NCBI GenBank assembly: GCA_016704525.1
Contig: JADIZX010000009.1
Span: 106,625 to 170,624, forward strand
Direction of reading: 5' to 3'
Length of the DNA stretch: 64,000 nucleotides
Source of the DNA: Myxococcales bacterium
GTDB taxonomy: Bacteria > Myxococcota_A > Polyangia > Polyangiales > Polyangiaceae
Below, one piece after another: positions 11,416-13,060 of the stretch; position 1 is the first letter of the stretch, and each line of letters opens with the position of its first letter. The notes beneath the pieces are model-generated. The model did no database searches, was not told the DNA's origin, and was given only the letters and a program-made list of their open reading frames with translations. The position numbers were made by a program, and so were the translations under genes.

Positions 11416-12780
11416 ATGGGGCCCATGGCACCAACGAAGCGCGGCCGCCCGGCTACAGGCTCGCTCCGCTGGCAACGCAACGCGCGGACCGGCGCTCACC
11501 AGTGGTTCGCGCAACTCACCCTCGCCGATGGCTCGCGCCCAATCGTCGAGCTCAACCCTCGCATTCCCGAGAGCGACCGCGAGGCCGCGAAGGCGTGCGC
11601 GCTCGAGGTGAGCGCCGAGGCGCGGGGCCGCGAATCCGTGTCTGTGCGCATCGTGGAGACGTTGGGCGAGTACGCGAGGAGATGGCTCGACGCTCGCACG
11701 GAGCGGGGCCTAGCAAGCGTCTCGGATGATCGCGGCCGCCTCGCTACCCACGTGCTTCCCGAGCTCGGCTCGCGTGACGTCCGGACCGTGGGCCGCGACG
11801 ATCTCGAGGGGCTCGTGGAGAAGCTCGACGCCAAGGTGCGCGCGGGCGCCATCGCCTGGAAGACGGCGATCCATTCGTGGGGGCTCGTTACGCGGATGTT
11901 CGCGGACGCGTGCGGCTCGAAGCGCCGAGACCTTCGCGTGCGCGAGGACAACCCCGCCGCGGGCGTACACGGACCCGACCGCGGAGCCCGACGCGCCAAG
12001 GTCTACCTGTACCCGGAAGAGTTCCTGCAGCTCGTGGCGTGCCCTGACGTGCCCCTACGCTGGCGCCGAATGTTCGCGCTCACGACGTACCTGTACGCGC
12101 GCGCGGGCGAGGTGAACGCGTTGACGTGGGCGGACGTGGACCTTGAACGCGGCGTGGTTCACATTCACCGCTCCGCCTCGAGGCGCACGGGCGAGAGCAA
12201 GAGCACCAAGACCGGAGGCACGCGGCGCGTGCCCGTCGAGCCGCACCTTCTGCCGTTGCTGTGCGCGATGCACACGGAGGCCGGAGGCGTCGGGCGAGTC
12301 TCGCCCGTGGACGCGACCGACAAGAAGACGGCGCGCCAGCTGCAGCGATGCCTACGCCTCGCCGGGCTCACGAGGGCGGACCTGTACGCCGACGACGCCA
12401 CCCGCAAGCCGATGACGTTCCACGACCTCCGGTCAACCGGGCTCACGTGGTGCGCCGTCCGCGGCGATGACCCGCTGCGCATCAAGCAACGCGCCGGACA
12501 TGCCGCGTTCACCTCGACAGAGGTCTACATCCGCGAGGCCGAGAACCTCCGCGAGACCAACTTTGGCACACCCTTCCCCGCACTACCCGAGGCCCTCATG
12601 TCCAGTGAACACGCCACCCAGGAAGCCCCGCCCGGAATATCGCAACGCTTTTCGCAAACGGGCGATATTCAGGACGGAAACATGAGCGAAAACGATACGT
12701 TACAGTGGAGGCGCCGGGAATCGAACCCGGGTCCGAAAATCACGCGCTTGCTGCTTCTACGTGCGTATCTGGTCGTTTAA
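11416..12780 (+). CDS. int: tyrosine recombinase / phage integrase; C-terminal tail ORF runs into the ssrA 3' end
   Basis: Catalytic-domain pattern R...HDLRST...R...Y (HDLRSTGLTW, AGHAAFTSTEVY); adjacent to the tmRNA 3' end. Confidence 0.8.
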   Translation: MGPMAPTKRGRPATGSLRWQRNARTGAHQWFAQLTLADGSRPIVELNPRIPESDREAAKACALEVSAEARGRESVSVRIVETLGEYARRWLDARTERGLASVSDDRGRLATHVLPELGSRDVRTVGRDDLEGLVEKLDAKVRAGAIAWKTAIHSWGLVTRMFADACGSKRRDLRVREDNPAAGVHGPDRGARRAKVYLYPEEFLQLVACPDVPLRWRRMFALTTYLYARAGEVNALTWADVDLERGVVHIHRSASRRTGESKSTKTGGTRRVPVEPHLLPLLCAMHTEAGGVGRVSPVDATDKKTARQLQRCLRLAGLTRADLYADDATRKPMTFHDLRSTGLTWCAVRGDDPLRIKQRAGHAAFTSTEVYIREAENLRETNFGTPFPALPEALMSSEHATQEAPPGISQRFSQTGDIQDGNMSENDTLQWRRRESNPGPKITRLLLLRAYLVV

Positions 12781-13060
12781 TTTCACCCCGGAGCGCGACG
12801 GCCAGCAGCCTTTCTCCGAGCCAATTTGCCTGTTTATTTTCGCCGTAGGCCCCGGCAACCCGGGCTTTGGCTAGTCAGATCGATGACGCCCTCGCCGAAG
12901 CTCTGACGGGCTTCGGGTCGGACGGCTCTACCGTTTTTTAGGCGGCGAGAGCGATTGCGTTGTCGTTCGCAATTAACGTCCCCATGAGGATTTACGTGGT
13001 TCACGAGACCCACGGCACGCAGCTAGGAAGTCGTCATCTCCGTCGAAACCGATCGCCCCC
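12706..13060 (-). ncRNA. ssrA: tmRNA (SsrA), one-piece, tag peptide ANDNAIALAA
   Basis: 5' GGGGGCGAUCGGUUUCGACGG. 3' ...UUCGGACCCGGGUUCGAUUCCCGGCGCCUCCA with G3:U70 and A73. Internal ORF GCGAACGACAACGCAAUCGCUCUCGCCGCC-UAA encodes ANDNAIALAA. Confidence 0.85.

Follow-up and report, generated by a model that had tools for sequence, protein, structure and literature searches.

The window analysed here is a 64,000-nt stretch of a Myxococcales genome (contig JADIZX010000009.1) in which an integrase gene, int, runs into the 3′ end of ssrA, the gene for transfer-messenger RNA (tmRNA). We consider it highly probable that an integrated element of about 14 kb has its ssrA-proximal junction (attL) in the window, that the attachment site of the free element (attP) lies within the int open reading frame (ORF), and that the C-terminal tail of the integrase is swapped on integration.

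The tmRNA gene was identified with ARAGORN and Rfam and then read directly, and the results are consistent. ARAGORN places a one-piece, intact tmRNA at 12705–13060 on the minus strand, with the tag ANDNAIALAA*, and the Rfam model RF00023 matches 12703–13060 (−) over its full length (1–374), with 170.3 bits (E = 1.4e-67) against a gathering score of 47. An intact tmRNA with this tag was what the initial annotation had claimed; its coordinates are accurate to within 1 nt, and the check by tmRNA models that it proposed is positive with both programs. By direct reading the gene starts with GGGGGCGAUCGGUUUCGAC at 13060 and ends with GGACCCGGGTTCGATTCCCGGCGCCTCCA, its terminus lying at 12706, where the last bases read ...GGACCCGGGUUCGAUUCCCGGCGCCUCCA. 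The tRNA-like domain is made up of the 5′ GGGGGCG (13060) and the 3′ ...CCCGGCGCCUCCA (12706). In its acceptor stem, formed by GGGGGCG and CGCCUCC, there is a G3.U pair, as expected in an alanine-charged tRNA-like domain, and its T-arm reads CCGGG-UUCGAUU-CCCGG, followed by the discriminator A. The tag frame occupies 12938–12970 on the minus strand (91–123 within the gene according to ARAGORN). It opens with the resume codon GCG and closes with the stop TAA, and direct reading from 12970 to 12938 gives GCG AAC GAC AAC GCA ATC GCT CTC GCC GCC TAA. The 29-nt 3′ end of ssrA occurs only once in the window, where the chance expectation is 0.

The ORF upstream, at 11416–12780 on the plus strand, had been called an integrase, and domain searches bear this out. 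Its 454-aa product matches the tyrosine recombinase family PF00589 at aa 198–376 (E = 5e-12) and the integrase family phrog_1 (E = 3e-34). A homology search with this protein returned 534 homologues, and alignment with homologues shows the catalytic residues R229, K265, H336-x-x-R339, H362 and Y371 all to be kept. Directly ahead lies a gene for an excisionase or AlpA-like helix-turn-helix protein (11061–11414, +), which matches PF12728 (HTH_17; E = 2.4e-9) and the excisionase family phrog_1840, with the excisionase domain TIGR01764 below its cut-off. The stop of this xis-like gene sits 1 nt ahead of the int start, and the xis–int pair recurs in L124 and L125, which are metagenome contigs of related elements. 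The catalytic part of int is evidently under coding selection, because the differences between L124 and the window are concentrated at third codon positions (45/29/107 at positions 1, 2 and 3); they comprise 93 synonymous and 52 non-synonymous codon changes.

The overlap between int and ssrA, put at about 75 nt in the initial annotation, measures 76 nt and is antisense. The last 25 residues of the integrase, LQWRRRESNPGPKITRLLLLRAYLVV, result from reading the ssrA 3′ end in antisense. Residues 431–436 (WRRRES) are encoded by the attachment core, residues 437–454 (NPGPKITRLLLLRAYLVV) are encoded by the antisense of the ssrA body, and the ORF stops 55 nt beyond the core, within ssrA. The core itself, GTGGAGGCGCCGGGAATCGAA on the plus strand at 12705–12725, was delimited as the block of identity with direct copies in a relative and with the attP junctions in L124 and L125, which are all described below. 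It spans the ssrA T-loop, the 3′ strand of the T-stem, the 3′ acceptor strand, the discriminator and one extra base. The identity with the attP and attR forms stops inside the T-loop, the other edge lies one base beyond the discriminator, and the flanks diverge on both sides. These edges place the crossover in the T-loop/T-stem–acceptor region; on the sequence comparison, it must fall inside the 21-bp core.

The far end of the island was located in a relative. The integrase search identified assembly GCA_963852875.1 as the closest available relative, through a 97%-identical fragment. Its contig is colinear with the window at 94–96.5% identity, two small island proteins are identical between them, and look-ups of shared proteins matched only this assembly and a 2-kb Logan contig. 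Through one such identical island protein we obtained a stretch of the assembly (L002) that reaches 8.7 kb further left. The colinear blocks are L002:9264–20171, equivalent to window 2035–13245, and L002:7627–7997, equivalent to window 1–397. A second attachment site beyond window position 1 had been predicted in the initial annotation, and in this 94%-identical relative the ssrA 3′ 21 nt do recur, about 1.7 kb to the left of the equivalent position: a 21/21-nt copy of GTGGAGGCGCCGGGAATCGAA lies at L002:5947–5967, in direct orientation, and a further 20/20-nt copy of the core, also direct, at L002:5853–5872. The ssrA gene of the relative is at L002:19631–19986, 13.7 kb from the distal core. 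As window position 1 aligns with L002:7627, the far attachment site is expected approximately 1.7 kb left of the window start. A breakpoint at window 2035 (L001:559 in the relative) was considered as the island boundary and rejected. It borders an internal variable segment, and homology resumes to the left of it, in the second of the two colinear blocks.

The tails of the homologues point to two states of the gene. Among the 120 best homologues, two kinds of tail follow WRRRES. One, which includes the window, reads NPGPKITR... and is ssrA antisense; the other begins K(T/P)... and continues into unrelated sequence. The closest homologue, P0001, is 521 aa long, 83% identical to the window integrase, and has the second kind of tail. 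Translated in the frame that crosses the distal core, the relative gives WRRRES|KTVPGVQKDTGNP...PDPLEATIRAGLDALVQAAIRAELERRRGASE*, in agreement with the residue pattern of the P0001 C-terminus. In L124, which encodes P0001, and L125, which encodes P0003, xis, int and the core are joined straight to sequence of the island left end: the post-core parts of both contigs are colinear with the left end in the relative (L002:5947–6664), and the int ORF is uninterrupted across the core, at 521 aa in L124 and 595 aa in L125. Judged by this colinearity, L124 and L125 are attP junctions, from excised circles or from tandem copies. Because these attP-form ORFs cross the core into sequence that the relative carries at its far end, attP by all indications sits within the int ORF, and the overlap with ssrA is no quirk of gene packing. 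The initial annotation described the overlap as typical of ssrA-targeting islands. The regeneration of the tmRNA 3′ end that it invoked holds; the overlap is not typical of ssrA islands generally, and the arrangement is that of the myxobacterial phage Mx8.

We propose that the integrase would have recombined the 21-bp attP core with its identical counterpart at the 3′ end of the host's tmRNA gene, which would be regenerated intact from host 5′ DNA and the core. In the free form, attP would lie about 60 codons past the catalytic tyrosine, and the ORF would cross the core and continue for about 85 more codons, encoding what is predicted to be a disordered linker that ends in one amphipathic helix. 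After integration these codons would lie at the island's far end, and 18 ssrA-antisense codons would substitute for them to give the 454-aa integrase; excision would restore the long form. The swap of C-termini would be expected to change integrase activity, as reported for Mx8, and convergent strong transcription of ssrA, together with the 76 nt of complementarity to the tmRNA, would be expected to damp int expression in the integrated state.

Read-through of the 3′ terminus of a gene for tRNA or for tmRNA (both called tDNA here) appears to be the rule in this integrase family. In 118 homologues the tail beyond the catalytic-tyrosine motif is 25 residues or longer, and 90 of these tails contain a T-arm-antisense peptide motif, where 6.4 are expected from shuffles. 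The antisense motif occurs in all three reading frames and lies a median 52 residues beyond the tyrosine motif. Checks at the DNA level gave an int gene that overlaps tRNA-Val(cac) by 43 nt (L128), and another that shares 115 nt, in another reading frame, with a different tmRNA (148 bits; L127). A scan of one genome per species, counting a core as displaced when the next base is not C, yielded at least 120 such copies of the ssrA core in Polyangiaceae, Sorangium, Labilithrix, Anaeromyxobacter and Archangium, several of which are followed by an in-frame orphan integrase C-terminal segment. A conserved in-frame ATG ahead of the distal core, from which this orphan segment might be expressed, was considered and rejected, since the frame varies from locus to locus. 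In L035 (619–2568, +), a large serine recombinase ORF with the N-terminus ...VYARFSSENQ... reads across the ssrA core, and likewise in L023 and L093, from which serine recombinases too appear to target the myxobacterial ssrA core. The L035 ORF runs in frame into a C-terminal domain that is otherwise found on tyrosine integrases. We considered a functional fusion of the two enzymes here and rejected it in favour of the simpler account, tandem islands with read-through over a common core.

The DNA on the int side of the core has features expected of an attachment-site arm. The P′ arm (12603–12705, +) falls within the int linker (approximately aa 396–430); it is variable in sequence and carries no signature of coding selection, and in the frame plot the frame-specific signal in G+C content at third codon positions (GC3) fades past about 12600. 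The ssrA strand of the arm folds, about 30 nt downstream of the tmRNA 3′ terminus, into a long hairpin (predicted fold −46.5 kcal/mol, z = −2.2), which could be a candidate replacement terminator for ssrA, the original one having been displaced. Candidate arm-type sites lie at 12635–12670: the 12-mer GAATATCGCAAC at 12635–12646 (+) and a partial inverted copy at 12659–12670 (−). An exact inverted copy of GAATATCGCAAC is present in the P arm of the relative (L002:6044–6055), and the three equivalent positions in L124 are taken by a co-varying 12-mer, GAATTCTGCAAC. We infer that these 12-mers are candidate arm-binding sites of the integrase. AlphaFold2, run on P0001, predicts a three-stranded sheet plus a helix at the N-terminus of the integrase, a combination typical of arm-binding domains. 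The co-varying 12-mers and this predicted fold together suggest a heterobivalent integrase with arm-type sites.

Some of the results weigh against the reading of an integrated element with a swapped tail, and they concern first the tail and then the limits of the island. In the window's clade, the post-core tail differs by 18/18/20, 33/29/35 and 33/30/35 at the three codon positions, and the first of these comparisons contains 9 synonymous and 31 non-synonymous codon changes; the linker ahead of the core differs by 11/10/9 between L124 and the window. By this measure both the linker and the post-core tail evolve like non-coding DNA in this clade, and the codon-position test found no C-terminal extension there that behaves as a selected protein segment. 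In the AlphaFold2 model of P0001, residues 10–400 are confident, residues 406–486 (about 80) are disordered, and a terminal helix at 491–515 is again confident, with a predicted local distance difference test score (pLDDT) of about 90. From the non-coding-like evolution and the predicted disorder together, the amino-acid sequence of the swapped tail may not matter. Furthermore, a run of 85 stop-free codons would arise by chance in about 1 of 5 cases at 70% G+C, as estimated from base composition.

It is quite possible that the read-through is meaningless, that the working integrase ends near residue 400, that the remainder is simply attP arm DNA in which stop codons are scarce only through the 70% G+C, and that the swap is without effect on activity. 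Besides the codon-position differences, the synonymous counts and the disorder at 406–486, this agrees with a GC3 of 0.68–0.80 in the tail, which is not above the G+C content at first positions, and with the conserved peptide AVA(I/E)FDA: this coincides with the candidate arm-site 12-mer, so that its conservation is explained at the level of DNA. Such an account is less easily reconciled with the frequency of open tails, since 76% of the 118 homologues are open at least to the tDNA core (median 52 codons past the tyrosine motif), where composition alone gives about 37%. The stop position is also conserved (91 codons in L124, 90 in the orphan segment of L002), the terminal helix is predicted with good confidence, and an altered C-terminus changes the behaviour of the Mx8 integrase (PMC6070905). 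In addition, sister elements carry another C-terminal extension (...RWDVVAQLARELEARRLA..NVV...), in which the codon-position differences are 12/8/34, 14/13/36 and 17/16/33, a pattern that clearly indicates purifying selection. A selected post-attP domain thus exists in the family; in the window's clade the tail may or may not act at the level of protein.

A more far-reaching proposal, which we regard as speculative and rather doubtful, is that attP within the ORF serves as a sensor of the integration state in a large clade of myxobacterial tyrosine integrases that includes the present one, with a two-hairpin unit of about 100 nt, which occurs next to ssrA and is described below, as a functional partner. 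The tethered C-terminal helix or domain of the free form would then be needed for efficient integration, and the tDNA-antisense codons supplied by the host would bias the enzyme towards stable residence until excision restores the gene. The two-hairpin unit would in that case be a decoy, a secondary attB or a miniature non-autonomous element, not debris.

The limits of the island are the second matter. No second copy of the ssrA 3′ end was found in window positions 1–12600, using the 29-mer, a 20-mer in which up to 3 mismatches were allowed, and a short-word BLAST of the ssrA 3′ end plus flank, and none of 120 GTDB loci matched the left end of the window. With the distal attachment site of this genome outside the window, the extent and the far boundary of the island would rest on the relative. 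The empty site was sought as the pattern B′+core+ssrA, which had 0 matches in metagenomes, and the fetched ssrA loci (n = 160) are only about 75% identical; nor did the metagenomes or these 160 loci contain a close relative free of the island. The int gene of the relative is frameshifted (L001:10001–10906; L002:18706–19611), so that the called product is 301 aa with its C-terminal part in another frame, and this copy is probably immobile. Finally, the junctions in L124 and L125 could be those of tandem arrays, not of circles.

Three of these points, namely the window without a second core, the frameshifted pseudogene in the relative and the absence of an empty site from metagenome matches and fetched loci, would also suit a fixed remnant, in which the far attachment site has been lost or the int–xis region is ancestral and merely lies beside ssrA. 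We find this improbable. Unlike the int copy of the relative, that of the window is intact, with all its catalytic residues; the relative keeps both boundary repeats and an orphan int 3′ segment; and related elements are found in the attP configuration in metagenomes. The GC3 of the island genes (0.83–0.88) is below that of the host genes beyond ssrA (0.90–0.95), which include a HIT-family gene and an FAD oxidoreductase, and the absence of the repeat is itself expected if window position 1 lies some 1.7 kb within the island.

The part of the integrated element that lies in the window extends over positions 1–12704 (+), as judged from GC3, the frame plot and the colinearity with the relative, and its left end is outside the window. 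Nearly all ORFs in 1–12780 are on the plus strand, and the window as a whole has about 70% G+C. Two adjacent genes, at 2978–3922 (+) and 3953–5620 (+), resemble respectively a primase/helicase and the C-terminal part of phage DNA polymerase/primase families. The pair matches phrog_3228 (E = 2e-6), phrog_29234 (E = 4.5e-62) and phrog_19930 (E = 3e-28), and gave no match in Pfam or NCBIfam; approximately 20 other island ORFs gave no match in Pfam, NCBIfam or PHROG. On these searches, the recognisable genes of the element are int, xis and the primase/helicase pair. That the element is instead a tailed prophage like Mx8, and not a small integrative, mobilisable or satellite-type element, is very improbable: the Mx8-like architecture of the integrase and the phage matches of the primase/helicase genes fit a prophage, and against it stand a length of only about 13.7 kb (as deduced from the relative) where Mx8 has 49.5 kb, and the finding that 0/20 island ORFs fall into PHROG structural, packaging or lysis families. 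The otherwise colinear island contains one replacement segment, window 398–2034, which is non-homologous to its counterpart L002:7998–9263 and has different ORFs; similarity declines to 67–85% at its right edge, at about window 1687–2415. Just beyond the far island end, the relative has Pfam matches to Arr-ms, OmdA/DUF8412, ClpS/Clp_N and an Imm5-like family (L002:3022–5759).

Directly downstream of many intact myxobacterial ssrA genes, or at far island ends, there are units of approximately 95–140 nt, in 1–3 tandem copies. Each unit consists, in order, of the ssrA 3′ 19 nt, a long hairpin (10–17 bp), the motif (C/A)(G/A)ATGA(G/C)C, a terminator-like hairpin and the next core, and the stem sequence of the hairpin differs between genomes. 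We observed such units at L002:5853–5967, in the genome loci L030, L108, L094, L013, L031, L044, L073, L101, L118 and L123, and in the metagenome contigs L129–L161. The metagenome set comprises 38 units in 33 contigs, with the motif in 34 of the 38 units; after the final core, 22 of the 33 contigs continue with AACCCGG, where ssrA itself begins. Among 13 units that were folded, all from genome loci, 12 have z-scores of −3 to −7.5. An Rfam search of the ssrA-adjacent hairpin unit gave no match.

Elsewhere in the window there is a YrlA-type Y RNA at 34086–34215 (−), which scores 68.3 bits with RF02553, slightly below the gathering score of 69 (E = 1.6e-15). It lies directly downstream of a Ro60/Rsr orthologue (ORF 34398–36308, −) with TROVE and Ro60 vWA domains. 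The tRNA-like module of this Y RNA explains a fragment resembling a tRNA 3′ end at 34141–34172, and a near-match to the core at 34148–34167, considered as an attachment-site fragment, was rejected as belonging to the same RNA. Three clustered genes, for tRNA-His(gtg), tRNA-Ala(tgc) and tRNA-Arg(acg), occupy 36081–36449 (−), immediately upstream of the Ro60 gene and on its strand, and the 5′ end of the Ro60 ORF, which overlaps tRNA genes, is probably over-extended. ARAGORN finds all three tRNAs of the cluster as well as a tRNA-Gly at 57749–57826, while Rfam at its gathering threshold finds only the tRNA-Ala of the cluster. G+C-rich repeats with a 9-nt period (GCGGCGGGC-like) at 16654–16715, 18356–18441 and 50982–51061 are probably low-complexity coding repeats. 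The G+C content falls to about 0.65 at 23001–24000 and 42001–43000, against a background of 0.70–0.78, and the ORF at 22973–24013 (−) has an unusually low G+C content at second codon positions, 0.39.

The analysis has several consequences for annotation and for the study of mobile elements, which is where its main value lies; established knowledge is not overturned. The odd 25-residue tail of the integrase is in all probability an integration footprint and not a gene-calling error or a new domain, and the attachment core is fixed to 21 bp. The Mx8 design, with int spanning attP, appears to be the norm for hundreds of integrases in Polyangiaceae and their relatives among the Myxococcota, whose targets are tmRNA and several tRNA genes. 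In metagenomes, the peptide past WRRRES may serve as a rule for telling integrated from excised forms, NPGPK... marking the former and an element-encoded peptide the latter. The long and short forms would also provide natural pairs of integrase alleles with which to ask whether the swap of the C-terminus controls directionality.

Among known systems, the closest likeness is to Mx8, whose intP, in work by Tojo in 1996 and Magrini in 1999 (through PMC6070905 and PMC4383910), reportedly becomes a new int allele on integration. The Mx8 integrase (533 aa) is a distant homologue of the window integrase: BLASTP aligns them with 32% identity over 213 aa (E = 3e-18), in the N-terminal half only. It bears a tDNA-antisense peptide of its own, ARSTGLEPV, about 112 residues before its end. 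In both cases a tyrosine integrase of a myxobacterial element carries within its ORF, past the catalytic tyrosine, a core that is a tRNA-type gene's 3′ end in antisense; an excisionase gene lies directly ahead of int; and integration leaves int with a new and shorter 3′ end, its original C-terminal codons being carried off to the opposite end of the integrated element. The two differ in that Mx8 targets tRNA-Asp and the present element ssrA, and in that Mx8 is a 49.5-kb phage, whereas here about 14 kb hold no detected structural genes. The displaced C-terminal part here is about 85 aa and shows no coding selection in the window's clade. In Mx8, attP lies within int, and integration makes a new int 3′ end that alters activity without abolishing it (PMC6070905).

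The element shares with ssrA islands generally (Williams, 'Traffic at the tmRNA gene', as represented in PMC4383910, and Islander) the integration at the ssrA 3′ end that regenerates the gene, the integrase gene beside the tDNA, the crossover in the T-loop/T-stem–acceptor region, and the displaced 3′ fragment that marks the far boundary, here in the relative. In most catalogued islands int ends before the attachment core, whereas here the ORF crosses it. This is an exception that Islander allows: integrase ORFs across attP are permitted and exempt from its overlap filter, with Mx8 and SSV named as cases (PMC4383910). Of the features by which Islander recognises an island (PMC4383910), an intact tDNA at one end and a tyrosine integrase gene inside or overlapping the island are present in the window, and the displaced fragment is present in the 94%-identical colinear relative. 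The Dehalococcoides ssrA islands (PMC3146451) are similar in their boundary, where about 20 bp of the ssrA 3′ end stand as a direct repeat, in their insertion point in the T-loop, in the repeated ssrA fragments downstream of ssrA, and in being small elements of the integrative, mobilisable type. They depend on the large serine recombinase DsiB, in contrast to the PF00589 tyrosine integrase of the window.

The 'suicidal' archaeal integrases of the SSV1 type (PMC8371274) likewise have the attachment site within the int gene, which is partitioned on integration. In the SSV type this separates essential parts of the enzyme (PMC8371274), whereas the split described here falls about 60 residues past the catalytic tyrosine. 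Since R229, K265, H336, R339, H362 and Y371 are all upstream of the core, the window integrase is not of the SSV type. The principle is thus one already known from Mx8, to which this ssrA-targeting element of about 14 kb appears to add an example.

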